Below are positions 4,955 to 21,905 of a stretch of DNA of 64,000 nucleotides, in pieces (the first letter of the stretch is position 1; each line of letters begins with the position of its first letter). The notes beneath the pieces were generated by a model. It saw only the letters and a program-made list of their open reading frames with translations. It was not told where the DNA came from and did not search any database. A program made the position numbers and the translations under genes. Source of the DNA: a virus (lineage: Duplodnaviria > Heunggongvirae > Uroviricota > Caudoviricetes); the IMG/VR virus record IMGVR_UViG_3300020718_000011, positions 1 to 64,000 of that record; one strand, written 5' to 3'.

Positions 4955-5290
4955 ATGAAACGACTATTTATACCATTACTGCTATTAATAGGAGCATGTA
5001 ACAATCCAGTAGCCCAGACAAATTTTGACAAGGTTAAGGCAGAACATCCAGCCGGGCGAATATTCTCGGAGCAGCCACAAGTAAATGGAAAAGACTGGGT
5101 TGTCCGGGAAGGGGATGCTATTTACAATGTAGAAATGGATCAAAATGGTGTCCCAAAATCTACATTATTAATTGAAAGGTGGAATCCAGCCTGGGATACT
5201 GCAACACCAAAGAAAGACACAGTTCCAGCAGATGCTCCTCCATTGGATAGTATTAAGAAACTAAACAATGATTCCATAACACACAAATAA
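4955..5290 (+). CDS. putative lipoprotein
   Basis: MKRLFIPLLLLIGACNN signal peptide and lipobox; preceded by canonical phage promoter. Confidence 0.5.
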   Translation: MKRLFIPLLLLIGACNNPVAQTNFDKVKAEHPAGRIFSEQPQVNGKDWVVREGDAIYNVEMDQNGVPKSTLLIERWNPAWDTATPKKDTVPADAPPLDSIKKLNNDSITHK

Positions 5291-5297
5291 TACCAAA

Positions 5298-5603
5298 ATG
5301 AGTTTACCAAAGAAAAGTTCGAACAATGCCAAAGGCATATCGTTAATCGCTTTCCTCCTTATTGGGGGATCAATTTTATTGTGGCAATGTACAGGAAATT
5401 ACCGAGCAAGGTATTTGGGTGGTAGCCAAACAATCAACCTTCCTGCCGGCCAGAAACTGATGAATGTTACCTGGAAGGACAATGAGATCTGGTATCTCAC
5501 ACAGCCAATGTCTCCGAATGAAGTTCCTGTAACTTCTACCTTCCACGAAAAATCTTCTAAGGGAGTTTTGGAGGGTACAATTATTATTAACGAGTCTAAA
5601 TAA
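5298..5603 (+). CDS. membrane protein
   Basis: 101 aa with an N-terminal TM helix (ISLIAFLLIGGSILLW); 8 nt after the upstream gene. Confidence 0.45.
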   Translation: MSLPKKSSNNAKGISLIAFLLIGGSILLWQCTGNYRARYLGGSQTINLPAGQKLMNVTWKDNEIWYLTQPMSPNEVPVTSTFHEKSSKGVLEGTIIINESK

Positions 5604-6025
5604 TTATTAGGGAAACCTGGAAAAAGTGGGTTATGTGGATTCCAGTGGCGGGGTTTTTAACCGTATCTAATCCCGACATAAAAAGGATACTGGATGATAA
5701 GAAATATCTATCCTGGATATATGGAATTTGGCAAGCCCTTGCAATTATTGGAATTATAATTTTAATGCAATATCCGCATGTTGGGAAGTAAACTAAAATG
5801 TGCTTCTGAGGTAATAATGGAACATTGAAAATTACTGATGGGGAATACAAAAATAAGGATAAGGGGAAATTCTATTTTGCTATTGATCCAGTAAATAAAG
5901 ATGCTAAAATCCAACTTTTACCAAAAATTGATGTGACAAGTAGATTTGTTAAAATGGAGCTGATAAAAATACTTTTATCTCAACCGGTAATAGAATAATA
6001 GAACAACTTTTAAAAGATAGAATCA

Positions 6026-6673
6026 ATGCTAAATAAGGATTCCACAAAGGAGGAGATATACCAGGAACTCCTAAAACGTACTGGATATAAAGACGACCAA
6101 GTAATCGAGGCTTATATGTACGGGTCTCGTGTATATGGTAATTCTCGGTCTGATTCGGACTGGGATTTTATTGTTATTATTAAAGCCAACCAAATTCATA
6201 CCGAACAATTTTCAGACAATTTAATAAACGTTAATTTCTATTACTTACACCAACATCACCAGAGGATTAATGAACACGAACCTTCTGCCCTGGAGTGCGT
6301 GTTTTTACCAGAAAAATTCATTCTTAAATTAAAGGACCCAAATTTTTATAAGTCCTTTAAACCAGACCTAGTTAAATTGAGACATGCTTTTTGTGCAAAG
6401 AGCTCTAATTCCTGGGTTAAGGCAAAGAAAAAATTAACAGTACCTGAATCATATAATGATAGCGTTGGAAAGAAATCATTATGGCATGCGATCCGTATAA
6501 TCTTTTATGGCATACAAATTTCTACGGAAGGAAAAATCACTAACTATGCCTGCTGTAATGGATTCTATGACAATGTTATGTATTGTAATGACTGGAGCGA
6601 ACTTTATGAAATATACAAAACCAAGTATAATGAGACACTAACAGAATTTCGTAAACACGCCAAAAAAGAATAG
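6026..6673 (+). CDS. Pol-beta-superfamily minimal nucleotidyltransferase
   Basis: YGSRVYGNSRSDSDWDFIVII fits the GS-x9-13-DxD nucleotidyltransferase signature; 215 aa. Confidence 0.5.
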   Translation: MLNKDSTKEEIYQELLKRTGYKDDQVIEAYMYGSRVYGNSRSDSDWDFIVIIKANQIHTEQFSDNLINVNFYYLHQHHQRINEHEPSALECVFLPEKFILKLKDPNFYKSFKPDLVKLRHAFCAKSSNSWVKAKKKLTVPESYNDSVGKKSLWHAIRIIFYGIQISTEGKITNYACCNGFYDNVMYCNDWSELYEIYKTKYNETLTEFRKHAKKE

Positions 6674-6674
6674 T

Positions 6675-6872
6675 ATGATTTTCACAGGAGGAAGGGATAA
6701 GCTTATGGAGGCTGCACAGAGACATCGTAATTTAGCTGGGAAATTACAACAGATTAAAGATCCAGACGAAAAAACTCTTCATAACATAGAAGCCCATATT
6801 CGCTGTGCTAATCGAATAACCTCATTATACGTATCTAAATATATTAGAAATTTACATAGCTCTGGATTATAA
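6675..6872 (+). CDS. small hypothetical protein
   Basis: 65 aa; TAATG-coupled to flanking genes. Confidence 0.35.
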   Translation: MIFTGGRDKLMEAAQRHRNLAGKLQQIKDPDEKTLHNIEAHIRCANRITSLYVSKYIRNLHSSGL

Positions 6873-7384
6873 TGGACACAAATAATATAGTTGAGAAAAT
6901 TGAGAAAATCCTAGGGATTAGGATAAAGAATATTGATCTCCAAACTCCTATTAAGGAAATTACCCATAAGGAAGCATTAACGGATTTGGATGCTGTTGAA
7001 AAGTATATCATTGAATTGCGTAGGGCTATCAAGAAAATGCCAGTAATAGTAGAGGCAGACCGAATACCTCCTGGGCTTGATCCACATCAGGTAATTTTGG
7101 AAACTGATAAGTGGCTCAAAGAAAGGAAAATGACAAATCCAGATTGGGAAATTCTTTGGATTCATCCTAAAACAGGACAAGTAGTATATTCCAAATATCT
7201 CTGCGATCCAGAAGACGATGGGTATATTAAAGGATTCCAAATAGCATTTGATATAAGCACTAATAAAATGATTTGCCGTAACTGCGATAATATTTGGGTA
7301 TCTTTAAATTCAAGGGGATTCGTAAGAGTAGAAGGCTCATTAGAAGAATTTAAAACAACTTATTCAAAATGGACAAACAAATAG
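6872..7384 (+). CDS. hypothetical protein
   Basis: 170-aa ORF; no recognisable motif. Confidence 0.5.
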   Translation: MDTNNIVEKIEKILGIRIKNIDLQTPIKEITHKEALTDLDAVEKYIIELRRAIKKMPVIVEADRIPPGLDPHQVILETDKWLKERKMTNPDWEILWIHPKTGQVVYSKYLCDPEDDGYIKGFQIAFDISTNKMICRNCDNIWVSLNSRGFVRVEGSLEEFKTTYSKWTNK

Positions 7385-7993
7385 AAGTAAGTATTCCTGT
7401 AAATTTTATTGGCATACTGGGAGAGGATGGTAGATGGCTAAGAACAGAAGGCTATGGAAGGATTTGGGTTGATGATATAACAAAAGGGGCTATTAAGAAC
7501 CCTGTCCATATAAGAACCTTACAAAGAAAACTGTAAAGGGGTATGAAAGAAAATACCTATCCATATTCAGAAGGAGTAAATCCCCAAGTAGTTAGGATAA
7601 AAGAAGTAATAGTTGAAATAATAGAACCTAGATTCACACTCACTGATTGGTTGGATTTTTTAGAAGAAGTAAGAAATGGAGAATTCTAATTTAAGGCATT
7701 CATGTAAAGAGTGTCCATGGACTAATGATTCTAAGAATAATAGAACTATGATAGAATCTATTAATAGATGGTGTGAAAATGGGGGTAGAAAGAATACTGA
7801 GCATAGGTGTCATATGATTAGTACAAACATATGGAATACAACAACACCTGAAAATATTTGTATTGGATCATTAAATAATACATCACATTAAGAAAGTGAA
7901 GGATAATGAAAGTGGTTTCTATAAAATAGATTATTATTTAGGATTACTTTCTAACACCACCATTTAGTAAATAAGAATAAAAACACAACCTTT

Positions 7994-8644
7994 ATGATTC
8001 GCATTGGTATTACAGCCGGAATTGGCGCAGGAAAAACAACAGTATGTCAGGAATTTGAAAAAGTGATGAAAATTCCTGTGTACTATTCAGATCATTGGGC
8101 CAAGTGGCTGATGGTGAATGATCCACAGGTTAAACAAGACATCATCAATCTCCTTGGTGCTGACTCCTATCAACCCGATGGTCTTTTAAATCGTAAACAT
8201 ATTGGAGATCTAATATTTAATAATCTGGAGCTGGAAAAGAAGGTTCAGATAATATTAAAGGAGCCATTCAAAAAGCATTTAGACAATTGGTGTAAAGAAC
8301 AGGAAGAGAATATGAGTGATTGCCATTATGCCCTTATTGAATCTGCAATTTTCTACGAAACAAATACATCTAACCAAGTTGATCTTATGGTTGGTGTGGA
8401 TGCCCCATTGAATATGAGGATTGCTAGAGCCATGAAAAGGGATATGGTAACCGAAGCAGAAGTAATGCGTCGTATTAAACTCCAAAAACATGATGAGAAT
8501 ATGAAGTATTGCGACTTTATCATCCATAATAGCAATAAGGAGGAGATGGTAAAGCAAACAAGGGGTCTTCATATTACACTAATTAAAATAGCATATCTTG
8601 CATTAGGTATTAGCGTTAATTGCGGAGGAGTTTCTATTCGATAA
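7994..8644 (+). CDS. dephospho-CoA kinase-like P-loop kinase
   Basis: N-terminal IGITAGIGAGKTTV Walker A at the CoaE position, plus CoaE-like downstream pattern (DxD region, RD.V..E). Confidence 0.55.
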   Translation: MIRIGITAGIGAGKTTVCQEFEKVMKIPVYYSDHWAKWLMVNDPQVKQDIINLLGADSYQPDGLLNRKHIGDLIFNNLELEKKVQIILKEPFKKHLDNWCKEQEENMSDCHYALIESAIFYETNTSNQVDLMVGVDAPLNMRIARAMKRDMVTEAEVMRRIKLQKHDENMKYCDFIIHNSNKEEMVKQTRGLHITLIKIAYLALGISVNCGGVSIR

Positions 8645-8655
8645 GAATAATTTTT

Positions 8656-9255
8656 CTAGTTAATCCTATTACTCTTTTTAATATTATCAATTTTCCATAA
8701 TGGTTGAAAATTACTATAATGATTTAATTTAATAAGATCCTCTTCATTTAAAGCCGAACTAATAGGTATTATATGATCATATTCCCATTCACCATAATTA
8801 TTCCATGACATCCCATCCACGAATTTATTCTCTATCCATATTTTAAATTCTTTATACGAACAACCCAAGATTCTATATGTTTTTGATGTTTTTGTATATC
8901 CTTGATTTTTAATAGCATTTCTTATAAGATTTCTAATGTTACTACTCATTTTAAAAATAGGATCAATATTTCGTTTTTCGTTCACATAATTGTTTCTCTT
9001 TTTTCTAATTTTTGTTAGCTCTATTTCAGATTTTTTAATTGAACTTTTATCTTTAATTTTTACTTTTTCTCTATAATAATTTTTTGCATATTCGTTTAGT
9101 TTTTTTCTGTTATTTTTACTATATTGATTAGAATAATTTTTCCTTCTCCCTAACTCTTCGGGGTCCTTATGAGTTTCTAAATATAATTTAGTTCTATTAG
9201 AGATAGTTTCCTTGTTCTTTTTATAATATTCCTTATAATATTCTTTCCTATCCAT
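8656..9255 (-). CDS. HNH homing endonuclease
   Basis: C-terminal ILGCSY..W..DHIIPISSA...NHYSNFQPLW..DN..KSN His-Me finger motifs; Lys/Tyr-rich YYKEYYKKNKE N-terminal repeats. Confidence 0.8.
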   Translation of the reverse strand: MDRKEYYKEYYKKNKETISNRTKLYLETHKDPEELGRRKNYSNQYSKNNRKKLNEYAKNYYREKVKIKDKSSIKKSEIELTKIRKKRNNYVNEKRNIDPIFKMSSNIRNLIRNAIKNQGYTKTSKTYRILGCSYKEFKIWIENKFVDGMSWNNYGEWEYDHIIPISSALNEEDLIKLNHYSNFQPLWKIDNIKKSNRIN

Positions 9256-9257
9256 TA

Positions 9258-9268
9258 TCTATATATCA
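9258..9268 (-). promoter_or_regulatory. class-B ATATATA box
   Basis: Minus strand reads gatatatagataATG, immediately before the HNH gene start at 9255. Confidence 0.3.
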
Positions 9269-9291
9269 AATAGCTTTTAAGATTTTATATA

Positions 9292-9346
9292 ATCTTTAAC
9301 ATTTAGTATTTTTTTATTCAAAAACAATTTATTACTTTTGTCTTAT
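9292..9346 (+). promoter_or_regulatory. class-A phage promoter
   Basis: atctttaacatttagtatttttttattcaaaaacaatttattacttttgtcttata; -7 box TACTTTTG; drives 9359. Confidence 0.6.
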
Positions 9347-9358
9347 AAATTTTAATCA

Positions 9359-9868
9359 ATGAGTGAGATTATAAAAAACTTAAAGAAAGGTTCCTTACTG
9401 ATAGCAGAACCCGATATGATTGATCCTGTCTTTTCCCAATCGGTTATATTAATTTGTAACCATGACGAGGATGGAACATTGGGATTGATTCTTAATCAGG
9501 TGTTTCCTCAAACGATGGAAGCTATGACTGGTATGACAATCCATTCAGGTTTTCCTGTTAATGTTGGAGGCCCAATGACAGAGGGTGGCGGAATAATGCT
9601 CCATCATGATAACTCCCTCTATGGTGGTGATGAAATAGCCAATGGAATTTATATTGGAACGAAGGATTCCCTCAGAGCATTAGAGGGATTTATATCACAC
9701 CAGGATGCCAACAAGAACAAGGCAAAAATATACGTGGGATATGCCGGTTGGGGTAAGGGCTCTTTGGAGTTAGAAATCCTTGACGGCAATTGGGCGGTAA
9801 AAGAAAGTACCGTAGACATAGTTTTTAATTCAAATGCAGATACGCTCTGGACAACATTATCCAAATGA
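9359..9868 (+). CDS. YqgE/AlgH (UPF0301) family protein
   Basis: GSLLIAEP.M.DP.F..SVILIC.H...G..GLILN...GGP.....I.LH....GYAGWG.G.LE.EIL.G.W matches YqgE/AlgH across its length. Confidence 0.6.
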   Translation: MSEIIKNLKKGSLLIAEPDMIDPVFSQSVILICNHDEDGTLGLILNQVFPQTMEAMTGMTIHSGFPVNVGGPMTEGGGIMLHHDNSLYGGDEIANGIYIGTKDSLRALEGFISHQDANKNKAKIYVGYAGWGKGSLELEILDGNWAVKESTVDIVFNSNADTLWTTLSK

Positions 9869-10344
9869 CTATAGACAAATTCTTCGAAACCTTAGACAAA
9901 TTCTACACAAAAGTAGGACATACTCCTTGTTGTATAAAATTCTATGCACAACAGAGTACCTTCAGCTTTGAGGTTCATGACAGCACACAAACTTGTTATA
10001 CTGATGAATCCTTAATCTATGAATCTCAGGTTTATTGGTGGAGATCACCAAAGGATATGGACAAGATTATTAAGAATATCAGGTCTTTCTGTAACGACTT
10101 TAAAGAGAAAGCAAAGAAATGGCCAGTTTGGGTTGGAGCATTACCAGATAATGCTCCAGATGGGCCAGTACATTATAATCCATTACCTACCAAAAGGGCT
10201 GAAGTTTATACCGGAGAGAATGCAATTCCCTTCTTCTATACGGAAAAGGCTTGCCAAAACTGGTGTGATAATCATACCTACCAGGGCGAATGGCTATGGG
10301 AAGGAAAAGATCATAGACACAAAAAACCGAAGGTAAAAAAATGA
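9865..10344 (+). CDS. hypothetical protein
   Basis: 159 aa, Cys/Trp-rich with basic C-terminus; ATGA overlap upstream. Confidence 0.45.
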   Translation: MTIDKFFETLDKFYTKVGHTPCCIKFYAQQSTFSFEVHDSTQTCYTDESLIYESQVYWWRSPKDMDKIIKNIRSFCNDFKEKAKKWPVWVGALPDNAPDGPVHYNPLPTKRAEVYTGENAIPFFYTEKACQNWCDNHTYQGEWLWEGKDHRHKKPKVKK

Positions 10345-10970
10345 TGTGGAACGAACAAGAAGCTGATGTTTACCTAGAAAAGGTATTAACAAATCTCGAA
10401 AGAATTAAACCATTTGAGGTAACAGTTCTTACTGGAGCCAATGGTTCTGGTAAATCATTAGTTCGTAAGGTCCTACCACAAAGGATGGCAGAGGAATTAA
10501 ATATACCAAAGGAAAGGGTTATAGGATCTACCTCGATGGAAAGAAGAATGGGAACACCATTCCTAAGTGATAGCCCATGGCAGCCAACCTCTATGGAAAC
10601 ATGGAATCAGATACGCCAAATCTTAAATCAACTGGATCGTTATATTGTTATAGATGAACCGGAAATTGGTACTGACGAGGATGTCCAAATGGCAATCATA
10701 GGTAAAATAAATGATGCGGTAAAGGAAGTTTATGACAAAGGGGATTTTAAAGGTTGCCTTATCATTACCCATAGCAAATTATTTGTTCGCCTTATCAGAC
10801 ATCACCAATTTATAAACCTTAATGGTTTAAGTGAGGATGAATGGCTAGATCGGTTACCAGTAAGAGCAGATCTGGAAGAATTAAAACATAATACTCACGA
10901 ATTAAAACATAATACTCACGAATTATTTCTGGCGGTAGAACGTCGAATTAAAGCTAATAAAGATAAGTAA
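10341..10970 (+). CDS. P-loop ATPase (ABC/AAA-like)
   Basis: Walker A LTGANGSGKS, Walker B YIVIDEPEIGTDED, H-loop IITHS; C-terminal in-frame ELKHNTH tandem duplication. Confidence 0.55.
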   Translation: MMWNEQEADVYLEKVLTNLERIKPFEVTVLTGANGSGKSLVRKVLPQRMAEELNIPKERVIGSTSMERRMGTPFLSDSPWQPTSMETWNQIRQILNQLDRYIVIDEPEIGTDEDVQMAIIGKINDAVKEVYDKGDFKGCLIITHSKLFVRLIRHHQFINLNGLSEDEWLDRLPVRADLEELKHNTHELKHNTHELFLAVERRIKANKDK

Positions 10971-11530
10971 TGGACCAAGAAAATACACTTCATTTAGTAA
11001 AAATATTTGCCGATATTGCTCATGGCGAGCAAAAACGGAAGTATACAGGAGAAAGGTATATTGTTCATCCAGTTCGTGTAATGGAAATTTGCAAAACGGT
11101 TACGGATGATATTCCAACATTAGTTGGTGCATTATTACATGATGTGTTTGAAGATACTACTACAACCGAGGCTGAGGTAAGAAAATTTCTAAGGGAATTA
11201 ATGACAGAGGAAGAGACCGAAGAAGTAATATTGATCATCCACGAACTTACCGACGAATTCATCAAAGAAAAATACCCTCAGTGGAATAGGGAAAAAAGGA
11301 AAAAATTCGAGGCGGAAAGACTCGGAACGATTACTGCAAAATCCCAGACTATTAAATATGCGGATGTGTATGATAATACAGAGGACATCCTTGCCTATGA
11401 TCGCAAATTTTCCTTTACCTATGTTCCAGAGGCTATGGATATGATGACCCAAATGAAACGGGGCAATAAAACATTACGAAAGAAAGCGCTGGAAGGCATA
11501 ATGGTAGCACTTGAAAAACTAGATCTCTAA
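10970..11530 (+). CDS. HD-domain (p)ppGpp hydrolase-like protein (SpoT/Mesh1 type)
   Basis: AHGEQKRKYTGERYIVHPVRV ... ALLHDVFEDT matches the SpoT/RelA hydrolase HD motifs. Confidence 0.65.
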   Translation: MDQENTLHLVKIFADIAHGEQKRKYTGERYIVHPVRVMEICKTVTDDIPTLVGALLHDVFEDTTTTEAEVRKFLRELMTEEETEEVILIIHELTDEFIKEKYPQWNREKRKKFEAERLGTITAKSQTIKYADVYDNTEDILAYDRKFSFTYVPEAMDMMTQMKRGNKTLRKKALEGIMVALEKLDL

Positions 11531-11531
11531 T

Positions 11532-12281
11532 ATGGCAGAGGAATATAAAGTTATCTTATACTTACAACCCGGTAATGAATTGCTGGCCAAGAGGAATGAG
11601 ATTTCTTATGCCGAACTAACTGTACTTGGGTGGGAACATCTAACGCACGATATTCGTGGTGTTCTTTCTGGTCGTCTTGAATTAGTTACATCCAGTGGAA
11701 CATTAAAGAAAGATAGCCTATTGGAAATACATCCAAGGGATCTAAAATCTGGCCATATACGTAAGGTAGAAATAATACCAACAAAAATTACAAAGGAATG
11801 GAAATCTTGGGGATTATCCTCTACCTTTATTGAATTTGACCCAAATTTATTAATGCCATTTAATACTCAAAGACTTCAGACTTGCAAATGTTTATACGAA
11901 CACCATACGGGATTACCTCGTACTAAAAATTGTATGAAAAGATGCGAAGCCCAAATAAACGCAACTAAAGAAAGAATTATGTTACCGCTTGAAAATCTTT
12001 TGGAAAAAGAAGACCTCACAATAGAGGAATTGAAAAAAAGACTGGACCATATTGAGAATTTGGTCAAAGATTTTAATGGTAGTCCGCGTAGGTATTATCG
12101 TATGAAAACACCTCCATCTGATATGGAAGGTGTTATAAGGGAAGCAGCTACGGTTTTATTTCCTGATATGAAGGTTGATAATCCTGTAGTTGTAGAATGG
12201 ATAATGGAATTTTATCCTGTTGACAAAAAAATTGAAATTTGGCCAGACGGAAGTGCCTGGGTAAGAACAATATTAGTATAA
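11532..12281 (+). CDS. hypothetical protein
   Basis: 249-aa ORF starting 1 nt after the upstream stop. Confidence 0.5.
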   Translation: MAEEYKVILYLQPGNELLAKRNEISYAELTVLGWEHLTHDIRGVLSGRLELVTSSGTLKKDSLLEIHPRDLKSGHIRKVEIIPTKITKEWKSWGLSSTFIEFDPNLLMPFNTQRLQTCKCLYEHHTGLPRTKNCMKRCEAQINATKERIMLPLENLLEKEDLTIEELKKRLDHIENLVKDFNGSPRRYYRMKTPPSDMEGVIREAATVLFPDMKVDNPVVVEWIMEFYPVDKKIEIWPDGSAWVRTILV

Positions 12282-12330
12282 GAGTGTTTATTTTTAACAA
12301 TCATCAATTAACCAAAACAAGTTAACGCGT

Positions 12331-13188
12331 ATGAAACGATTAAAGTTAGGGCTATTCGCAGCAATGGCCATCGCGTCCTTAGCAGGATGTTCCGGAGTAT
12401 CACCAGGAGGTGATGAGGAAGCAGTATTAATAGAGAAACCATGGATCTGGGGGCATGGAGGTGTTGATGATGAGCCAGTCACTTCTGGTAATTCTTGGGT
12501 GGCACTATCAACAGACGCCGTCAAGTTTAAAATTACCCCTGCTAAGTACACCGAGGAATTTGATAACTTGATGACCTCGGACAATAACCCGGTAACCTTT
12601 TCGGTGTACATTACACTCCAGGTACAAAAAGGAAAAACTCCCATACTTTATAAAGGCTGGGGCGACAAATGGTATGAGAATAGCCTACAGGCTCAGGTGC
12701 GTACGATGGTAAGAGACAAAGCCAGCCCATTCAAAATGTTTGATCTCACAACAAAAAGGGAAATTTCATCTACAATTGAGCAGGATCTTACAAAAAACAT
12801 CAATTCCCTTATTACCAGTATAAAGGATAAGGATGGTAAATCACTACCCGTTACTCTTATTAACGTAGCCGTTGGTGCTATTACTCCGCCGAAAGAGGTG
12901 ATAGATGAAACGAGCAAGACCGCTGCGCAGAACCAGGCCAAGCTTACCCAGGATGCCAGAATTGCAGTGGAGCAATCCCGTAAGAAGGCCGACATCGAAA
13001 AGGCCAATGCGGATATAGCCTATATGCAAACGATGAACTTTACACCCGACCAGTATTTACGGTTGAGGGAACTGGAAATTCGTAAGGAGACAATTGAGCT
13101 TGCCAAAGACGGTAAAGCTCCTCTATCTCTTAATGTCATAATGGGACAGGGGCAGAATATTACACCGACCGTACAGGTAGGTAAATAA
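12331..13188 (+). CDS. SPFH/band-7 domain lipoprotein
   Basis: MKRLKLGLFAAMAIASLAGCSG lipoprotein signal; C-terminal TPPKEVIDETSKTAAQNQAKL..ARIAVEQS..ADIEKANADIA resembles the SPFH/prohibitin region; GC noticeably above genome background; strong terminator follows. Confidence 0.6.
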   Translation: MKRLKLGLFAAMAIASLAGCSGVSPGGDEEAVLIEKPWIWGHGGVDDEPVTSGNSWVALSTDAVKFKITPAKYTEEFDNLMTSDNNPVTFSVYITLQVQKGKTPILYKGWGDKWYENSLQAQVRTMVRDKASPFKMFDLTTKREISSTIEQDLTKNINSLITSIKDKDGKSLPVTLINVAVGAITPPKEVIDETSKTAAQNQAKLTQDARIAVEQSRKKADIEKANADIAYMQTMNFTPDQYLRLRELEIRKETIELAKDGKAPLSLNVIMGQGQNITPTVQVGK

Positions 13189-13208
13189 TCAATACTGATA
13201 TTACAATT

Positions 13209-13245
13209 AACCTCGGCCAGCTGTGAGTTGGCCGAGGTTTGTGGT
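13209..13245 (+). terminator. intrinsic terminator after SPFH lipoprotein gene
   Basis: aacctcggccag-ctgtgagt-tggccgaggttt: 11-bp GC-rich stem, 9-nt loop, then TTTGTGGTT. Confidence 0.7.
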
Positions 13246-13260
13246 TGAAAATATTTCCTT

Positions 13261-13479
13261 ATGTCTAGTCATACAGTACTATTCTTTATTTGTGCGTTCC
13301 TTGTTTGGTATTCAATAATTTATATCTCACTATATGCACTCTTTTATAAAACCTTCGATCTAAGAAAGTGGATTCCAGACAAATATCTCGTCTGGATATT
13401 ACTAGCAGTAGCCCTAATCATTGACTACTTCTTATTCCCGTACGCCATGCTACTCTTGCTCCTACTAAATTTAATCTAA
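13261..13479 (+). CDS. small membrane protein
   Basis: 72 aa, two hydrophobic helices. Confidence 0.35.
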   Translation: MSSHTVLFFICAFLVWYSIIYISLYALFYKTFDLRKWIPDKYLVWILLAVALIIDYFLFPYAMLLLLLLNLI

Positions 13480-13484
13480 CTAAT

Positions 13485-13784
13485 ATGCGTACCGAAGAAG
13501 AAATAAAGGTGAAGCTGATCTCTCTTAGAGAGGTTGCTCATGATATACAGAAGAGAAGCGATAAACTATTTAGGGAAATGAGTGAAGGTCTTGGTCATCT
13601 GCCAATGGAAAGATTAGAATCCATTAATGAAGAAATTGGCATGATGAGGAATAGAGCTTTTGAACTTTTGGCAAACGCACGAGCCATGAAATGGTGTCTT
13701 GGTGAAATTGACGATATTGATTTCGCGATGAATACCGCTGCTGGAATCATAGAAAACGCACAGGATGGCTTTGATACTTTATAA
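13485..13784 (+). CDS. hypothetical protein
   Basis: 99-aa ORF. Confidence 0.4.
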   Translation: MRTEEEIKVKLISLREVAHDIQKRSDKLFREMSEGLGHLPMERLESINEEIGMMRNRAFELLANARAMKWCLGEIDDIDFAMNTAAGIIENAQDGFDTL

Positions 13785-13785
13785 A

Positions 13786-13845
13786 TTCTTTAACACTTGG
13801 AATTTTTTTATTCAAGAACAATTTATTACATTTGTCTTATATAAA
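13786..13845 (+). promoter_or_regulatory. class-A phage promoter
   Basis: ttctttaacacttggaatttttttattcaagaacaatttattacatttgtcttatat; TACATTTG; drives 13851. Confidence 0.6.
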
Positions 13846-13850
13846 ATTAT

Positions 13851-14072
13851 ATGAAAGAGTCAATAGTTAATATACTTGGAAAGAACCATAAGCATACAAT
13901 AGGCTTCAAGGAAACCCAAGAAATTAGTGGACTCTATACATACAAGGGAGAGATTTATTGTATCCATGCTGGTGAGGATTTTCCATTTGAGAATGTTTCA
14001 GAAGCTGGTAAAAAGAAAATACATCAAGCCATTTTAGATGGTAAATATAAAATCGATAGGACTATACAATGA
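13851..14072 (+). CDS. hypothetical protein
   Basis: 73 aa directly downstream of canonical promoter 13786-13845. Confidence 0.45.
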   Translation: MKESIVNILGKNHKHTIGFKETQEISGLYTYKGEIYCIHAGEDFPFENVSEAGKKKIHQAILDGKYKIDRTIQ

Positions 14073-14608
14073 CACCGGAACAAAGGAAACATTATTTTAA
14101 GGGGGGCAAATTTATTGCTATCTATGGTCCTGTAAAGCTAGATATAGCTTGGGAGTCTAAAATGATGATCGGGAAGAAAATTGAGGTCTATCAGAATTGT
14201 TTAAATACTCCTATGGAGAATGGGCAATTCAGATTTAATTCACCTGCTATTTATGGATGGTTTCCAGAAGAGGATATTAAGGATTTGGAAATTATTGACG
14301 AATTTATAGATTTTCCAGAACCTACTACACAATATTGTTATAGGATGACTCTCACTGATCCAGTAGCCATATTCAAAAATTTTGGTAAAGGCAATTGGGG
14401 AAAGAAAGTAATTACTACCCGGGAATATAATACAGACCAGGATGATTACGTTCTAAATAAGTTACTGGATCCTATGCCTGATACCATTGAAAAAAGGATT
14501 TTAGATTTAACCGTACCCGAAAATGAATATCCGGCATGGGAAGAAATCTATCCTCCTAAAATTAAGTCGAATATTAAATTAGAAGATATAAATGAGCAAG
14601 CCAACTAA
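14069..14608 (+). CDS. hypothetical protein
   Basis: 179 aa; ATGA overlap upstream. Confidence 0.5.
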   Translation: MTPEQRKHYFKGGKFIAIYGPVKLDIAWESKMMIGKKIEVYQNCLNTPMENGQFRFNSPAIYGWFPEEDIKDLEIIDEFIDFPEPTTQYCYRMTLTDPVAIFKNFGKGNWGKKVITTREYNTDQDDYVLNKLLDPMPDTIEKRILDLTVPENEYPAWEEIYPPKIKSNIKLEDINEQAN

Positions 14609-15020
14609 ACAAGTTATAGTTTGGAATAATGGGCTAAGGAATAAGTCTGGAGGAAAAATACGTGCAGGTAAATTCGCTGCCCAAATAAGCCATGCGAGTA
14701 TGGCATTTATAACACGGGGTGGATATTTTACAAAGCCTACTATGGTTGATGGTGCTATCTTTATGAACCCCAATATGTCTAATCCTGCCGAGGCAGAGGA
14801 TTGGATGGAAAATTCATTTACGAAAGTAGTACTAAAGGTTAATTCCGACGAGGAGCTTTTGGAAATTTATAACAAGGCAAAGTCTGCAGGTTTAGAGGTA
14901 CATTTAATAACAGATGCAGGCCGAACAGAATTTAATGGCCCTACAAGAACATGTGTTGGAATAGGACCAAATTATTCCGAACTTGTAGATGCTATCACTG
15001 GACATTTAGAACTCATGTAA
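14592..15020 (+). CDS. pth2: peptidyl-tRNA hydrolase, PTH2 family
   Basis: GKFAAQISHASMA and TKVVLKVNSDEELLEIYNKAKSAGL..HLITDAGRTEF..PTRTCVGIGP match the PTH2 signatures (GKxAAQxxHA, DAGxT..LAIGP). Confidence 0.75.
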   Translation: MSKPTKQVIVWNNGLRNKSGGKIRAGKFAAQISHASMAFITRGGYFTKPTMVDGAIFMNPNMSNPAEAEDWMENSFTKVVLKVNSDEELLEIYNKAKSAGLEVHLITDAGRTEFNGPTRTCVGIGPNYSELVDAITGHLELM

Positions 15021-15394
15021 TGGAAGAAGAAATAAAAACACTACCGGAAGGAATTGAAGAGGTAATACCTGCAAAGGTTCAGCCTGAAGTAATAATAGAA
15101 CCTTTGCAAGCACCTCTAAAGTTTGTGGCAGAATATGAATTTGCCCTAGTGGAAGTTCCAAAAGGAACTATGAAGTATTTTGAAACTTCTAGGGTCAAGG
15201 ATGAATTGGCAGATTGGTTAGTGAAAAATGGGTATCCTGATACTGGAGATTTTTATAAAAATTTTCGTTGTCTTCGTGATGTTTTAGGATTTAAACATGT
15301 AATGACTCAACTAAGACATAAATCCAAGGACAACATACAAACCTATACCGCAGAAATAAAAGAAAACTTAAAAGTGGAAAAAGAAACAGACTAA
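15020..15394 (+). CDS. hypothetical protein
   Basis: Track ORF starts at 14951 inside pth2; the TAATG-coupled Met (MEEEIKTL) is the likely start. Confidence 0.45.
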   Translation: MEEEIKTLPEGIEEVIPAKVQPEVIIEPLQAPLKFVAEYEFALVEVPKGTMKYFETSRVKDELADWLVKNGYPDTGDFYKNFRCLRDVLGFKHVMTQLRHKSKDNIQTYTAEIKENLKVEKETD

Positions 15395-15406
15395 AAAATA
15401 CTAACT

Positions 15407-15751
15407 ATGGATAAGGAAAATATGCGGAAATATGCCAATGATGTTTTAGAACTTACAAAAGGTATATCTAGAAACAATGCCAGTAATGAGTTAAGGGCAT
15501 TGGATGATCTTTCCGGATTCGTCTTGGAATTAACCCAAGAGCCTTATAAGAAATTGGAAGCAATTACTGACGAGGATGCTATAAAGGCATCAGAAATTCT
15601 TGGTGGTGTTGGTCATATATCAAATGAAGCAAAAATACACCAATTGAAGGAATTACTATCTAAATATCATAATGGCCAAACTAATATTCCTGGGTATAAT
15701 TGGTATAAGTTATTTCAATTTTTGGAGAAGGAGCTTTATATAATCGACTAA
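15407..15751 (+). CDS. hypothetical protein
   Basis: 114-aa ORF. Confidence 0.45.
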   Translation: MDKENMRKYANDVLELTKGISRNNASNELRALDDLSGFVLELTQEPYKKLEAITDEDAIKASEILGGVGHISNEAKIHQLKELLSKYHNGQTNIPGYNWYKLFQFLEKELYIID

Positions 15752-15762
15752 AAATATTAACT

Positions 15763-16230
15763 ATGGGATGGTGGGGATTTGGAATAATGGAAGGTGATTC
15801 ACCTCTTGATATGGAAGCAATCATATTTGATACTCTTAAGATAGATCAGTATGATCAAGCACAGCAGGATAAAATTGGTCCTGCTCTGACAGAGCAGCAG
15901 GAAAAAATCTTCCATATGATAAAGAACCATAAGAAAATTATGGCCGAGACCAAATGTATTGGACATCAGGTTCTGGCTTATCTTATGATGAAGCATGGAT
16001 CTACAATGAAGCCAGAGGTAAAAGAGCTTCTTATTAAATCCATCCAAAAAGATGATTGGGCTAAAGGTGATGACAAGCGGAAGAAAAAAATTTCTAAATT
16101 ACTTACTGCAGTAGTTGGATATGAAAATACCCAAATAGAATTACCACAAAAGGGATTATTTGAGGTTTTGGGGGAACATCTCAAAAGTGGAAAGTCTGGA
16201 TTAATAAACGTGATTCCAAAAACAAATTAG
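15763..16230 (+). CDS. hypothetical protein
   Basis: 155-aa ORF. Confidence 0.45.
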   Translation: MGWWGFGIMEGDSPLDMEAIIFDTLKIDQYDQAQQDKIGPALTEQQEKIFHMIKNHKKIMAETKCIGHQVLAYLMMKHGSTMKPEVKELLIKSIQKDDWAKGDDKRKKKISKLLTAVVGYENTQIELPQKGLFEVLGEHLKSGKSGLINVIPKTN

Positions 16231-16259
16231 TTTTATTTTTAAACCAATAAATAGTAAAA

Positions 16260-16622
16260 ATGAAAATTCTAAAATTGGCTGCATTGACAGCTATAGCCGT
16301 AAATGGCTCGAACACAGCAATCCCTGAATGGGCAAAAGAAAGTATTTGGGATCTTACAACAGAAGGTTATATAGCCCCACGGGTTATTGCTGCTGTTTCG
16401 GTAGATCCCCCGGGATACGTAGTAACAGAAAAAGGGCAGAAGCTGGTATCTATGTTGGAGGCATGTTCTGACTATTTCGGGGTGCACCAGGATCTAAAAG
16501 AGGGTGCAGCAGAAGCATACTCCGCAGCCAAAGAGGATACAGGAAAAATTATTAACGAGGGAAAGAAGAAGTTTAACAGTATGTTGGATTTTCTGAAAAT
16601 TCCATTACATGAAGAAAAATGA
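16260..16622 (+). CDS. putative secreted protein
   Basis: N-terminal MKILKLAALTAIAVNGSNTA signal-like segment; TGA/ATG coupling to rtcB. Confidence 0.45.
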   Translation: MKILKLAALTAIAVNGSNTAIPEWAKESIWDLTTEGYIAPRVIAAVSVDPPGYVVTEKGQKLVSMLEACSDYFGVHQDLKEGAAEAYSAAKEDTGKIINEGKKKFNSMLDFLKIPLHEEK

Positions 16623-17836
16623 CAGAAAAACAAATTGCAGTAGATTATTTCTGCGAACCTGATAAGATTGATGAGAATGCTAAAGCCCAATTAGACCAGT
16701 ATAGTAAAATGCCGGGATTGGAGAAGCTTTGTGCTTTCCCTGACATCCACTTTTGTGACGAGAAAGCCATTCCAGTAGGTGTGGCTTTCTCTACTCGGGG
16801 TATATTCTATCCACTCGTAACCGGCAAAGATGTTGGGTGTGGTGTTGGCTATGCCCGAATAGGAAAAAAGTATTTACTAAAACCTTTTGATAAGAGCAAA
16901 CATTACAATGCTTTGGAACGGGCTCATCGTGATATGACCGACGAAGGATTGGGGGGAGGAAATCATTTTCTATCTTTGGAAGAGGATGACGAATATCTTT
17001 ATGTCATTTGCCATACTGGTACAAGGAATAGGGGTATAGCTCTTTACCAAGAAGGCTATCAAATGGTAAAAGAATACTCCAATGAAATTGGGGAGGAGGT
17101 TAAGTATGTTTCCTGGGAATGGATGAGAGAGAAACATCCAGAATACTTAATGAGCGTTTTGAGAATTCCGGATTATGCAACCAAGCGCAGGGCGGATTTC
17201 GTATTCAAAACAATAACCTTCCTTCAAAAGAATGGGTATCTGGAAAACACAAAGCCCATAGAAAAAGATTACTTGTCCCGAGATTATTGGATTAAATCAA
17301 TAATGGATGAATACCATCCTGATCTTGGTATACCAGGGAAGGAGTGGCTCCCAAAGACAAAAAGGACTCCAATTGAAATAAATGGGATACCTTATGAGTG
17401 GCATGATTCGATGCACAATCATTTAGAATTCAAAGAAGATGGATCAATAATACACAGGAAAGGAAGTACGGAAATAAATCCTGGCGATGAGGTAGCTATT
17501 CCCCTTTCGATGACCAGGGGAACATTGATAGTAAAGGTTCATCCGTTTCATGATATAACAGGAGCACTTAATTCTTGTTCTCATGGAGCAGGTAGAAAGC
17601 TATCACGATTTGATTCCATGAAACATTGGCGAACAGTACTGAAGGCTAAGGAAAGAAAAGCATATGAGGAAAGGTTTTCGGAGCTACTTGATAAGAGTGG
17701 GAAATTTCCTTCTGGATACCTCCAGGAATTTGACTACGCATACAAAGATTCGTCGGACATTCTGACGATGCAACCATATTTAAGAAAGGTAACTCAAACA
17801 ATACCTATTGTAACTATTAAATACACAGAAATCTAA
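16619..17836 (+). CDS. rtcB: RNA-splicing ligase RtcB
   Basis: GKDVGCGVGYA, GGGNHFLSLEED, ICHTGTRNRG, WHDSMHNH and SHGAGRKLSR line up with RtcB metal/GTP motifs (GvDIGCGm, GGGNHF, HSGSRG, HNhA, HGAGR); 405 aa. Confidence 0.75.
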   Translation: MTEKQIAVDYFCEPDKIDENAKAQLDQYSKMPGLEKLCAFPDIHFCDEKAIPVGVAFSTRGIFYPLVTGKDVGCGVGYARIGKKYLLKPFDKSKHYNALERAHRDMTDEGLGGGNHFLSLEEDDEYLYVICHTGTRNRGIALYQEGYQMVKEYSNEIGEEVKYVSWEWMREKHPEYLMSVLRIPDYATKRRADFVFKTITFLQKNGYLENTKPIEKDYLSRDYWIKSIMDEYHPDLGIPGKEWLPKTKRTPIEINGIPYEWHDSMHNHLEFKEDGSIIHRKGSTEINPGDEVAIPLSMTRGTLIVKVHPFHDITGALNSCSHGAGRKLSRFDSMKHWRTVLKAKERKAYEERFSELLDKSGKFPSGYLQEFDYAYKDSSDILTMQPYLRKVTQTIPIVTIKYTEI

Positions 17837-18121
17837 TTTGATGATAGAGAAGATATTAATATGTTTTATTGTTCCTATCTTATATGTAGTAATAATGAAA
17901 ACAATTATAAAAATAGATGCAGATCGACAGCCACATCTATTATATATATCCTTTATTATTACTCTGTTTATTCAAATGGCTGTAGTTTATCATTTAAAAT
18001 GATGTAATGAAAAAGGTAGAAGTCAACGCAGGGAATTTCCAAAAACAATTGGCCATTACGAATATTATTGATACCGAATATTATAAAAATAACGACACTT
18101 ACTTTAATTTAGTAGAACAAG

Positions 18122-18871
18122 ATGGCACAGATAACTAATTTAGATACAATGACCTTAGATATTACGAAGCCTTTAGTTCTGCAAGATCAGGAATTAGAGT
18201 TTCGTAAGTTATCATTATTGACTGGTTATAATGGGGCAGGTAAATCTTTTATTCAGGTAAGTGCATTTGTTCTATGCCAGGTAGGAAATGTGATAGTAGC
18301 TGGGGGAAAGGACGAGGAATTAAAAATGTCTGCCCAATTCATCATTGATACCTGTTTTGATAGTAAGGAGATTACAGGATTACTTAGCTGTAAGTTTGAT
18401 AATGATGCCCTACTCCGCATAGTAATGGCCGAAGGAAAGGTAGTTTATGTTTACTTCGATGGATTCGCGGATGTAAAATATATTCCTTCTGTTACCTATA
18501 TGTCCTCTGCAATGAGAACTTTCAATGCAATTAAAAGTTATCTTGTTGCACGGAAGATGGTAATGAAAGCTGTGAATGGTGACATGAATCAATTGGTCGG
18601 AACATTAGTAGAGGACTTCAAACTATATGATGTAATGTATATTGAAGGCCTCATTATGAAGATGCCAAAGGTTGCGGATGAAAAGGTGATGAAATTCTTA
18701 GATTCATTTGAGCTAAAAACAAAGGTTGATGTTGTGTCATTCGGTGTTGACCTGGAAAAATCCGAATTCTATCTAATTGAAAAAAAGGACGGAGAAGAAA
18801 AAACAACTTACTTGTCTCAGATGAGCGTAGGTAATCAGGCTATTTATAATATGATGTTAGCAAACGCTTAA
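18122..18871 (+). CDS. P-loop NTPase-like protein (Walker A, ABC-signature-like, no clear Walker B)
   Basis: LLTGYNGAGKSF Walker A; C-terminal YLSQMSVGNQ resembles the ABC LSGGQ signature; no hhhhDE seen. Confidence 0.45.
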   Translation: MAQITNLDTMTLDITKPLVLQDQELEFRKLSLLTGYNGAGKSFIQVSAFVLCQVGNVIVAGGKDEELKMSAQFIIDTCFDSKEITGLLSCKFDNDALLRIVMAEGKVVYVYFDGFADVKYIPSVTYMSSAMRTFNAIKSYLVARKMVMKAVNGDMNQLVGTLVEDFKLYDVMYIEGLIMKMPKVADEKVMKFLDSFELKTKVDVVSFGVDLEKSEFYLIEKKDGEEKTTYLSQMSVGNQAIYNMMLANA

Positions 18872-18873
18872 TT

Positions 18874-19173
18874 ATGGAGAATAAATTTCCCGAGATAGAG
18901 GGTATTGATTATGGAAAAATTAACGAGACAATCAATAAGTTTGTTGAGCTCCTAAAAGCTAAAGATTATGAAAATGCTATTCCAGTAAGGAATGATATAG
19001 TAGAAATGTTAAAACCATTTAAGGCTTTAATGGTAGTTAATTCTTTCAATAACAAGAACAATCAATATGTTAATGAGGAAACTAAAGAGCTATTAAAACC
19101 TATTGATGAGTATATTAGAACTTTATCCGTGGAGGAGAAGGAAAAAATTAAATTAATACTAATAGGAAAATAG
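18874..19173 (+). CDS. hypothetical protein
   Basis: 99-aa ORF. Confidence 0.4.
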   Translation: MENKFPEIEGIDYGKINETINKFVELLKAKDYENAIPVRNDIVEMLKPFKALMVVNSFNNKNNQYVNEETKELLKPIDEYIRTLSVEEKEKIKLILIGK

Positions 19174-19178
19174 TTTAT

Positions 19179-19433
19179 ATGGCAACCTTTGTAGCAGATA
19201 AGTACGATTGGAAAAATGATCCAGATCTTCCAAAGGCAGGAAGCATCATTAATGATGGCAAATGGGAAGTAGTAAAAGCCGAAGCCGTCACAGTAGAAAA
19301 ATTAATGGCTTGGGCAGAAGATTCTGGAGGTAGGGAACCCGATTTAGTAGAAGGTTCAGGAGCGGTTACTATTATGGACCATTCATCTAGACCCTTCCTT
19401 AAATATATTGTTTGGTATAAAAATGTAACATAA
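19179..19433 (+). CDS. hypothetical protein
   Basis: 84 aa on the plus strand; the overlapping minus-strand ORF 19175-19447 is treated as shadow. Confidence 0.4.
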   Translation: MATFVADKYDWKNDPDLPKAGSIINDGKWEVVKAEAVTVEKLMAWAEDSGGREPDLVEGSGAVTIMDHSSRPFLKYIVWYKNVT

Positions 19434-19792
19434 TGGCGAAGGATCACTTAATGCTTTATACAATGTATCCCGCTGAAAATCTGACAGGAGAATTAACTAC
19501 TACGTTAGACTTATGCGAATGTGGATTAAGAACAGCTACAACTCGTAGTTATCCATTAGGAAAGGTTGGAGAGATTATTACATTTAATAAAAGGCCACAG
19601 CAATATAGGATAACAGAAGTAGTCAAATTGGATACAGTAAATACGATTGATCCAATTTGGATTGAACAATGGTCTAATAAAGAACAGTGGACAATTAATC
19701 ATTTTCATAAAGTAATGGGAGGAAAAACCGTACATCTTGGATCGTGGCAAACCTCCTTTGAAAAAATACCAATGTCAAAACCTTTAATGTAA
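19433..19792 (+). CDS. hypothetical protein
   Basis: 119 aa; TAATG coupling. Confidence 0.45.
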   Translation: MAKDHLMLYTMYPAENLTGELTTTLDLCECGLRTATTRSYPLGKVGEIITFNKRPQQYRITEVVKLDTVNTIDPIWIEQWSNKEQWTINHFHKVMGGKTVHLGSWQTSFEKIPMSKPLM

Positions 19793-19796
19793 ATAT

Positions 19797-20270
19797 ATGA
19801 CTGAATTTGATTTAAGAGAACTAGCAAATGTAACTCATTCCATTTCTCATTTCCATAGCTTACATGCACAACTTATACAATTAGCCTCTCATGAGACACC
19901 AATTCAGGATGGGTTAAAAGATTATTGGACAAGAAGAGTTATGCCGCATACCAAAAATAAAAGTATGGGTTGGCTCGAGCCAGGATATGAGACCTCTTTA
20001 TGGAGACAATGTAATATACATATTATAATCCAAAATTGGGGTAGTACATCTGGTGGCTGGGGTGGAATAGGAGGTGCTGCAATGACAGATTCCTATACTA
20101 CCATTATAGAAAACAAAATTTTCTATATTGCTGGTGTATACTATGGAGGAAGGTTGGCTTATCTTGTAGAGATTAATGATGCCTATATGGAATATAAGAA
20201 AGTGGGGTTTATTAGTATGCCAGCAATGGATTCAACCAGTGGATTAAAAATTCTTTATAAAAGTAAGTAA
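19797..20270 (+). CDS. hypothetical protein
   Basis: 157 aa; Gly-rich WGSTSGGWGGIGGA segment. Confidence 0.45.
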   Translation: MTEFDLRELANVTHSISHFHSLHAQLIQLASHETPIQDGLKDYWTRRVMPHTKNKSMGWLEPGYETSLWRQCNIHIIIQNWGSTSGGWGGIGGAAMTDSYTTIIENKIFYIAGVYYGGRLAYLVEINDAYMEYKKVGFISMPAMDSTSGLKILYKSK

Positions 20271-20277
20271 TTTTAAT

Positions 20278-20652
20278 ATGGTACGATCAGATTTATTTTT
20301 GCCTCAAGAGTTATCTAATTTATTAATTAGTAAAGGATTTGATTGGGAGGTTATTGGAATTTATGGGGGATCCACTGGAATAATGCTATCTAGTGCGAGT
20401 GTTGGATTTAAATCTGCTCACCATTATTATGAAAAGAACGGAGCAATTCTTTGGTATCAGGCGGAAGGATTTTTACGACAAAAAGGATACTCAGTAGAGA
20501 TTTCTTCTTCTTATAGTAATAGGTATAAAACCATTATATACGTATGGGAAATTCGTGTAGCAGGTAAGGTATTTGCAAATCCACGTATTGAACATAATGA
20601 CCATGATAAATGTTTACATGAGGGAATAATCGAGTGTATAAAATTATTATAA
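20278..20652 (+). CDS. hypothetical protein
   Basis: 124-aa ORF. Confidence 0.45.
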   Translation: MVRSDLFLPQELSNLLISKGFDWEVIGIYGGSTGIMLSSASVGFKSAHHYYEKNGAILWYQAEGFLRQKGYSVEISSSYSNRYKTIIYVWEIRVAGKVFANPRIEHNDHDKCLHEGIIECIKLL

Positions 20653-20731
20653 TCTAGTTTCAGTTTGAATAGAAATCTATTAACTATTACATACTTAATT
20701 TCATTATAATAATTGGTAATATATACAGGAT

Positions 20732-21445: not shown

Positions 21446-21488
21446 TATATGGAAGGAAACTTATGAAAAGATTCAATCTATAACATTT

Positions 21489-21905
21489 ATGAAGTTAACG
21501 ACTAGAAGAGAAAAGAATGCCAAATTAACATCTGATGAACTGGATGATAATTTTCTTTATCTTGAGAGCTTGTTTAAAACCCGGGGGAGTGTAACAATTT
21601 CTATTGAAGAATATAACAATCTTTTCCGATATAAGGAACAAATAGATAAAGGTTTAGTATCTGTTACTATCACTCATAAAAATGAAAAAGGGGACGATGT
21701 AAGTGTAGATAATACATTAATGCTCCAAAGAAATATTACCTCCCCGATAACAGAAATACTGAATGCCAATAGGAATATGTTAAAATTATTAGAAGGAAAG
21801 AATTCTGAAATACTAAATTCCTATAAAAATGGTAAACTCCCATACAAAAGACCAAGCTTATGGCAGCATATCAAAGATTGGTTTAAAAATTCCCTTTGGC
21901 AATAA
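21489..21905 (+). CDS. small protein with fibre-type N-terminal motif
   Basis: MKLTTRREKNAKLTSDELDDNFLYL resembles the N-termini of fibre proteins 25616-27442 and 27773-29506. Confidence 0.5.
   Translation: MKLTTRREKNAKLTSDELDDNFLYLESLFKTRGSVTISIEEYNNLFRYKEQIDKGLVSVTITHKNEKGDDVSVDNTLMLQRNITSPITEILNANRNMLKLLEGKNSEILNSYKNGKLPYKRPSLWQHIKDWFKNSLWQ

Follow-up and report, generated by a model that had tools for sequence, protein, structure and literature searches.

The window examined here, 64,000 nucleotides of a Caudoviricetes virus record (IMGVR_UViG_3300020718_000011, positions 1 to 64,000), is a stretch of a freshwater metagenome contig (JGI 3300020716) in which genes for an RtcB-family RNA ligase, a PTH2 peptidyl-tRNA hydrolase, a stand-alone SpoT/Mesh1-type HD hydrolase and a Pol-beta-superfamily nucleotidyltransferase (NTase) lie close together. 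These four open reading frames (ORFs) and two others coding for P-loop proteins begin and end exactly where a preliminary description of the same DNA, made from the letters alone, had placed them (6026-6673, 10341-10970, 10970-11530, 14592-15020, 16619-17836 and 18122-18871, all on the plus strand), and the independent gene calls of the source concur. With a HAD phosphatase gene located outside the range of that description, the RNA-directed genes cluster at 6-26 kb of the window. PHROGs and NCBIfam agree with the Pfam assignments of the enzymes.

The RtcB-family 3'-phosphate/5'-OH RNA ligase (405 residues; 16619-17836, +) reaches 87.2 bits against PF01139 (cut-off 27) and matches phrog_1075 at 1.4e-38. 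The protein is divergent, a single-sequence search of the PDB returning no match, and a profile of 24 clade members served to align it with the RtcB references from P. horikoshii and T. thermophilus. In this profile alignment, D71/C74 (GKDVGCG), N115/H116 (GGGNHF), H132 (CHTG), H266/N267 (HNH) and H322 (SHGAGR), all invariant in 24-26 homologues, fall on the metal-ligand and guanylyl-histidine motifs of the references (D95/C98, N202/H203, H234 and H404 in P. horikoshii). The AlphaFold (AF2) model (predicted local distance difference test, pLDDT, 82.8; predicted template modelling score, pTM, 0.85) gave 16 Foldseek matches in the PDB at E<=5e-12, all of them RtcB (template modelling scores, TM, 0.54-0.62), the next match being at E=0.1. 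Judged from sequence and model, the protein is confirmed as an RtcB with the RtcB fold and all of the metal-ligand and guanylyl-histidine residues.

In a distance tree, the window RtcB clusters with proteins from phage-like contigs, and the sister group consists of Chitinophagaceae/Cytophagales proteins (53-56% identity); the other huge-phage RtcBs fall outside. This compact Bacteroidota/phage clade (376-405 residues) is, by its position in the tree, consistent with exchange with Bacteroidota hosts. The bacterial homologues have no common neighbour gene and no PrfH beside them. Two related phages, L003 and L015, encode RtcBs 65-66% identical to that of the window. The start of the RtcB gene overlaps the stop of a 120-residue ORF (16260-16622, +) without assigned family, for which no match was found in Pfam, PHROG or PADLOC; in L003 the gene immediately preceding RtcB is its 51% identical orthologue, and L015 has a 120-residue gene in the same place, this upstream position being confined to the lineage. 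Downstream of RtcB, a 119-residue ORFan (19433-19792) without match in any library is syntenic and 71-80% identical in L003 and L015. In two further IMG/VR contigs (L009 and L010, ~10229-11035), the RtcB homologue appears as two separate ORFs when code 11 is applied, which could be due to stop-codon recoding or indicate a pseudogene.

The archaeal/eukaryotic-type peptidyl-tRNA hydrolase PTH2 (142 residues; 14592-15020, +) is recognized by PF01981 at 103.1 bits (cut-off 23) and by the equivalog model TIGR00283 at 93.6 bits (cut-off 82), and scores 97 bits against NF003314, below the cut-off of 126. Its K27, D108 and T112 align with the catalytic K18, D86 and T90 of S. solfataricus Pth2 (1xty) and are invariant in four phage orthologues; those of L003 and L015 are 52% identical and occupy the same position. 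In the related 453 kb phage L018, a gene for ribosomal protein L7/L12 directly precedes the PTH2 gene with overlapping coordinates (14452-15322), and an NTase of the type found in the window is 4 kb upstream of PTH2, with no RtcB or HD gene within 10 kb.

The stand-alone RelA/SpoT-type HD hydrolase (186 residues; 10970-11530, +), a Mesh1-like small alarmone hydrolase (SAH), matches HD (PF01966, 39.7 bits) and HD_4 (PF13328, 31.0 bits; cut-off 27.2) only, without a synthetase domain, and has a local match to TIGR00691 spoT_relA (2.2e-14). Its PDB matches are limited to the hydrolase domains of Rel/SpoT, Mesh1, Lmo0812, a ppApp hydrolase and SAHs. The motifs H18xxQxR23, H33, H57-D58-x2-E61-D62 and A131-D132-x3-N136 make up the full Mesh1-type catalytic set, corresponding to R24, H35, H61-D62, E65-D66, D122 and N126 of Mesh1. 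A 249-residue ORFan (11532-12281, +), which found no match in any library searched, is directly downstream, and this pairing is kept in L003 (61% identity). At the sequence level, the identities of PTH2 and of the SpoT/Mesh1-type hydrolase are fully supported, and so is the integrity of their catalytic residues. The profile searches and catalytic-residue alignments that the preliminary description had proposed as checks on RtcB, PTH2 and the HD hydrolase were run, and all three assignments passed both.

The fourth enzyme (215 residues; 6026-6673, +) is a Pol-beta-superfamily NTase resembling gp109 of Bacillus phage G. It passes PF18765 (29.8 bits; cut-off 26.9), G33-S34, D45-x-D47 and D64 being invariant, and consists of an NTase core and a helical bundle; the best fold match of the protein is HalB (PDB 9dbh). 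The family, of ~200 residues and specific to large viruses, is well conserved (~50% identity over the full length) and occurs in 65 deposited genomes, nearly all of large phages, including Bacillus phage G (gp109), XacN1 (ORF208) and 15 Prevotella phage records. When set against viral models, the window NTase comes nearest to those of Klosneuvirus-type giant viruses (TM ~0.8) and next to jumbo-phage 'nucleotidyltransferases' and baculovirus HE65; some of the Klosneuvirus-type relatives are fused to EndoV or exonuclease domains. Its earlier assignment to the Pol-beta NTases thus stands; a role in CCA-end repair, suggested at the same time, does not, since none of the features of CCA-adding enzymes (a head-neck-body-tail architecture of >350 residues, PolyA_pol or tRNA_NucTransf2 profiles) was found in the protein. 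RlaP, a two-domain NTase that was recently found to extend damaged RNA 3' ends by one or two nucleotides, offers another comparison. The window protein scores 12.1 bits against PF10127, below the threshold of 23, and 11 of 31 family members match RlaP at E<=1 (best 4e-4), in the N-terminal core only. In general layout, the model resembles RlaP (an NTase domain followed by a C-terminal helical domain, the terminal helix packing on the NTase). RlaP-like extension of RNA ends is our best guess for this enzyme, short of membership in RlaP itself.

The genomic neighbours of this NTase elsewhere are often tRNA-, RNA-repair- or NAD-related, with no constant partner. In phage Nate, the gene is 1.6 kb from an RNA ligase; phage G and a Vibrio jumbo phage have tRNA arrays nearby, and XacN1 and RAS14 have NadM-Nudix/NADAR genes. 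No ligase is located near the gene in L018, L019, XacN1, RAS14 or phage G, and in the window RtcB is 10 kb off.

The RNA-directed gene beyond the original range codes for a stand-alone HAD phosphatase of the 'Swiss Army Knife' (SAK) RNA-repair type (25144-25644, -; PF18143 HAD_SAK_2, 68.2 bits, cut-off 27.5; phrog_1818). It overlaps both flanking large ORFs (23657-25159, 500 residues, and 25616-27442, 608 residues) in an apparent three-gene operon on the minus strand. No Pfam, PHROG or PADLOC match was obtained for these two large proteins, which could be uncharacterised RNA-repair components. A HAD_SAK_2 domain also adjoins the bacterial RtcB homologue of L016, and in L003 another is found downstream (in the order 591-residue protein, S4, 750-residue protein, HAD_SAK_2).

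The two P-loop proteins, both described earlier as ATPases, fared differently. The first (209 residues; 10341-10970, +) is a small ABC-type, AAA_15/21-like ATPase with a Walker A (G32ANGSGKS) and a Walker B (Y101IVIDE); its matches to AAA_21, ABC_tran and AAA_13 are sub-threshold and those to PtuA/AriA-type proteins weak. Its stop overlaps the start of the HD hydrolase gene, and it is a variable gene, missing in L003. Near its C-terminus, residues 183-197 form a perfect tandem duplication ('ELKHNTH ELKHNTH'). For the second (249 residues; 18122-18871, +), ATPase function is unproven: it has a Walker A (G35YNGAGKS) in what resembles the N-terminal half of an ABC/AAA_15 protein, no Walker B or H-loop, and a single AAA_15 match at 16 bits (E=0.0075), and it ends just after an ABC-signature-like 'SVGNQ'. 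The orthologues in L015 and L003 (74% and 54% identical), located one or two genes downstream of RtcB as in the window, have the same C-terminal end, so the protein is not truncated by assembly; the missing half is not encoded by the ORFs that follow, which lack conservation. PADLOC returned just weak generic matches (PtuA, AriA, NsnB, PDC-S09) for the ATPases, the NTase and the ORFans. A pairing of RtcB with an ABC-type ATPase was considered on account of the ABC_tran gene upstream of RtcB in Chitinophaga and the Walker A protein downstream of it in the phage. It was rejected as merely P-loop similarity, and the neighbours in L016 and in phage Nate (gp173) are unrelated.

From 4955 to 21905, nearly all genes are on the plus strand with short gaps or overlaps, the sole exception being a gene for an HNH/endonuclease VII-like protein (8656-9255, -) placed between CoaE and AlgH, an insertion region missing from L003. 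Pfam identifies CoaE, AlgH, an SPFH protein and this HNH endonuclease as unrelated genes lying among the RNA-directed ones. The probability of four genes landing within 11.8 kb of 64 kb is low (p ~0.02), which is weak evidence because the gene category was picked post hoc. A scan for sigma-70 promoters and intrinsic terminators yielded counts at or below the shuffled expectation and defined no operon, with a consensus that may not fit Bacteroidota.

The order CoaE - HD hydrolase - 249-residue ORFan - SPFH - PTH2 - 120-residue protein - RtcB - Walker A protein is kept in L003 and L015, and in these two and the phage of the window PTH2 and RtcB are 1.6-4 kb apart. L003 is already without the NTase, the HNH gene, AlgH, a 159-residue gene and the 10341-10970 ATPase, and has instead a class-Ib tRNA synthetase (tRNA-synt_1b), Fmt and an S4-domain gene. 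Outside these close relatives the picture is quite different. At nine huge-phage RtcB loci (40-46% identity) and in L017 (54%), no other gene of the block was found within 10-20 kb, and no conserved RtcB neighbour emerged from the distant huge-phage loci. The same holds around PTH2: RtcB, this NTase and the HD enzyme are all missing within 10 kb of it at each of twelve loci taken from diverse large phages. As the linkage is restricted to L003 and L015 and absent from the distant RtcB and PTH2 loci, it is synteny by descent in one lineage and not a recurrent module; recurrence across phylogenetically independent genomes, by which a conserved counter-defence module would be recognized, was not found.

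An RtcB identical to that of the window is also encoded on a 473,921-bp contig. A search of a phage collection with the window at the DNA level matched no deposited phage; at the protein level, the closest deposited relatives are uncultured phages of 460-735 kb. The remainder of the window holds mainly ORFans, together with Mu Gam, an IS1595 transposase and GIY-YIG/NUMOD homing endonucleases. The identical RtcB on the large contig, the size of the relatives and this content of ORFans, homing endonucleases and Mu Gam indicate that the locus belongs to a very large phage (>=474 kb). Its hosts are probably Bacteroidota, given the sister position of Chitinophagaceae/Cytophagales proteins in the RtcB tree and the published prediction of Bacteroidetes as hosts of the largest huge phages (Al-Shayeb et al. 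2020).

We consider it probable that the locus is a lineage-specific accessory arm of separately acquired and separately acting enzymes, which would keep the host translation machinery usable in infection. The enzyme families, the fold, the intact active sites and the lineage-specific linkage are established by the data above; the substrates of the enzymes, the timing of their action and the source of the pressure, whether host defence or the infection itself, we infer. In the proposed scheme, RtcB would use GTP and Mn2+ to seal RNA ends with a 2',3'-cyclic or 3'-phosphate and a 5'-OH, as generated by metal-independent RNases, and the SAK-type HAD phosphatase would trim terminal phosphates. 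PTH2 would free peptides and N-blocked amino acids from tRNAs that have dropped off or been released from stalled ribosomes, the Mesh1-like HD enzyme would strip the 3'-pyrophosphate from (p)ppGpp/(p)ppApp and possibly from the CCA ends of toxSAS-modified tRNAs, and the gp109-like NTase would most plausibly add nucleotides to the 3' end of a nucleic acid, as RlaP does. The adjacency of the genes would reflect shared descent in one phage lineage and not an obligate pathway. Other translation genes in the same arm of related phages (tRNA-synt_1b, Fmt and S4 in L003; L7/L12 by PTH2 in L018), the additional HAD_SAK_2 gene and the restriction of the linkage to close relatives argue for this accessory arm. 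Several points weigh against it. A tRNA/tmRNA scan and Rfam at gathering thresholds detected no tRNA genes and no structured RNAs in the whole window; the 64 kb examined belong to a genome of >=474 kb, a share on which enrichment cannot be judged genome-wide; and the NTase role is weakly grounded, RlaP being below threshold and the best fold match being a DNA-synthesising defence NTase. Moreover, the PTH2-RtcB-249-residue Walker A protein order is kept at 52-74% protein identity in three phages, which could reflect some selection for co-expression and would favour a concerted function.

The same genes may have nothing to do with defence and serve instead the takeover of translation and the control of host physiology, a possible explanation that we hold only tentatively. 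The SAH would then lower (p)ppGpp and block the stringent response so that ribosome synthesis stays high, PTH2 would recycle the drop-off peptidyl-tRNA produced by heavy phage translation, and RtcB would mend RNA nicked by phage nucleases or stress, all working alongside phage aminoacyl-tRNA synthetases, Fmt and ribosomal proteins. The presence of tRNA-synt_1b, Fmt, S4 and L7/L12 in the same arm of related phages fits such a role, as do the adjacent CoaE and AlgH, which are metabolic or regulatory host-like genes, and huge-phage translation genes have been read as redirecting host translation (Al-Shayeb et al. 2020). However, neither RtcB nor the SAK-HAD phosphatase is known to take part in undamaged translation, and the review literature ties RtcB, PTH2 and the alarmone phosphodiesterases to conflict; takeover and counter-defence are not mutually exclusive.

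The preliminary description had gone further and seen in the four enzymes what looked like a counter-defence toolkit against tRNA-targeting abortive infection. In its full form, this view would make the four and the ATPases one co-regulated module, selected as a unit to reverse the effects of anticodon nucleases, toxSAS and GNAT toxins. It restates an existing jumbo-phage hypothesis, according to which RtcB, archaeo-eukaryotic PTH2, HD-alarmone phosphodiesterases, RlaP/CCA NTases and stand-alone SAK-HAD phosphatases counter host attacks on translation (Iyer, Anantharaman, Krishnan, Burroughs & Aravind 2021, Viruses 13:63, sections 3.4.8-3.4.9), and its rationale is plausible. There is a documented anti-toxin precedent for each of the activities: SAHs, for instance, reverse the toxSAS pyrophosphorylation of tRNA CCA ends and restore aminoacylation competence, and ligation of host-cleaved tRNAs has been noted for huge phages, where it answers host defences as part of a wider redirection of translation (Al-Shayeb et al. 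2020). The single-strand arrangement with short or overlapping gaps, the HD-PTH2-RtcB-Walker A protein order retained in L003 and L015, and the location of the NTase family near an RNA ligase or tRNA arrays in other phages also point in this direction. As a single conserved unit, however, the module is unlikely: partners are found within 10-20 kb at 0/10 distant RtcB loci and at 0/12 PTH2 loci, L003 already lacks the NTase, the 10341-10970 ATPase and AlgH, the unrelated CoaE, AlgH, SPFH and HNH genes are mixed in, and no promoter or terminator signal above background marks an operon.

The tRNA specificity of the repair, also part of that proposal, is not supported and has to be regarded as an assumption, because RtcB paralogues have mutually exclusive substrates, EcRtcB1 acting on tRNA and EcRtcB2 on cleaved 16S rRNA in 30S subunits; tRNA and rRNA are both candidate substrates here. 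A repair of rRNA instead of tRNA, in which RtcB and PTH2 would be the functional analogue of the bacterial PrfH-RtcB2 rescue-and-repair pair, is suggested by this exclusivity, by the proximity of the two genes in the three phages and by the best NCBIfam matches of RtcB, which are the RtcB2-type models PRK09588 and TIGR03073. It is nevertheless highly improbable, for these scores are far below the cut-offs (92.7 vs 407 and 65.3 vs 271.8), PrfH is absent from the window as it is from beside the bacterial homologues, PTH2 is unlinked to RtcB in other phages, and PTH2 enzymes act on free and not on ribosome-bound peptidyl-tRNA. Very doubtful too is the idea that the gp109-like NTase, whose closest solved fold is HalB, is a viral counter-measure of a new anti-defence class common to giant viruses of bacteria and eukaryotes. 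Such an enzyme would either make or extend short oligonucleotides (for example replenishing oligo-dA so that a Hailong-type channel stays closed) or tag or repair RNA 3' ends by a route other than that of RlaP.

Returning to the accessory arm, its enzymes can be compared with several known systems. The families (RtcB, PTH2, HD-alarmone phosphodiesterase, Pol-beta NTase, SAK-HAD) and the proposed purpose are those of the jumbo-phage repertoire; that review, however, describes genome-level co-occurrence in cultured jumbo phages (Iyer et al. 2021), whereas here the five families lie within 20 kb of an uncultured freshwater phage, and the NTase does not qualify as an RlaP or as a CCA-adding enzyme. 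Bacterial RtcB systems comprise EcRtcB1 (rtcBA, tRNA repair), the Pseudomonas rtcB-rlaP-rtcA operon and EcRtcB2-PrfH (16S rRNA repair). The window shares with them the RtcB fold, all the metal-ligand and guanylyl-histidine residues and, as in Pseudomonas, a Pol-beta NTase in the neighbourhood, but it is without RtcA, RtcR, archease and PrfH, its NTase is 10 kb off and below the RlaP threshold, and its RtcB belongs to a separate clade. The HD enzyme has the single HD_4 domain and the R/H/HD/ED/D-N set of the SAHs that neutralise toxSAS (Mesh1, ATfaRel, PaSpo); unlike the SAH-toxSAS pairs, it has no toxSAS gene adjacent and is thus not part of a toxin-antitoxin pair, being flanked by the ABC-type ATPase and the conserved 249-residue ORFan. 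The best fold match of the NTase is HalB, the defence nucleotidyltransferase of Hailong, but no HalA transmembrane effector adjoins the gene.

Judging by its sequence, the locus is a clean example, with catalytic residues intact, of what jumbo phages carry for RNA repair and translation rescue. The physical clustering is a trait of one lineage and calls for caution in reading neighbours in the accessory arms of huge phages as pathways. The Bacteroidota/phage RtcB clade, the widespread NTase family of large viruses and the ORFans conserved beside RtcB and beside the alarmone hydrolase are leads for further work. Should the enzymes prove able to neutralise anticodon nucleases, toxSAS or GNAT toxins, the study of phage counter-defence would gain useful reagents.

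Some other features of the window deserve mention. The IS1595-family transposase (Zn_ribbon_IS1595 and DDE_Tnp_IS1595; 41390-42286) is located inside the phage contig, and besides the HNH/endonuclease VII-like gene in the block there are two other homing-endonuclease-like genes at 54922-55734 (+) and 58632-59330 (-), one GIY-YIG/NUMOD3 and one NUMOD3. The SPFH/Band-7 protein (12331-13188) is the most conserved of the block, being 89% identical to its L003 orthologue as compared with 52-70% for its neighbours, and a Band_7 gene is also found near RtcB in L017.

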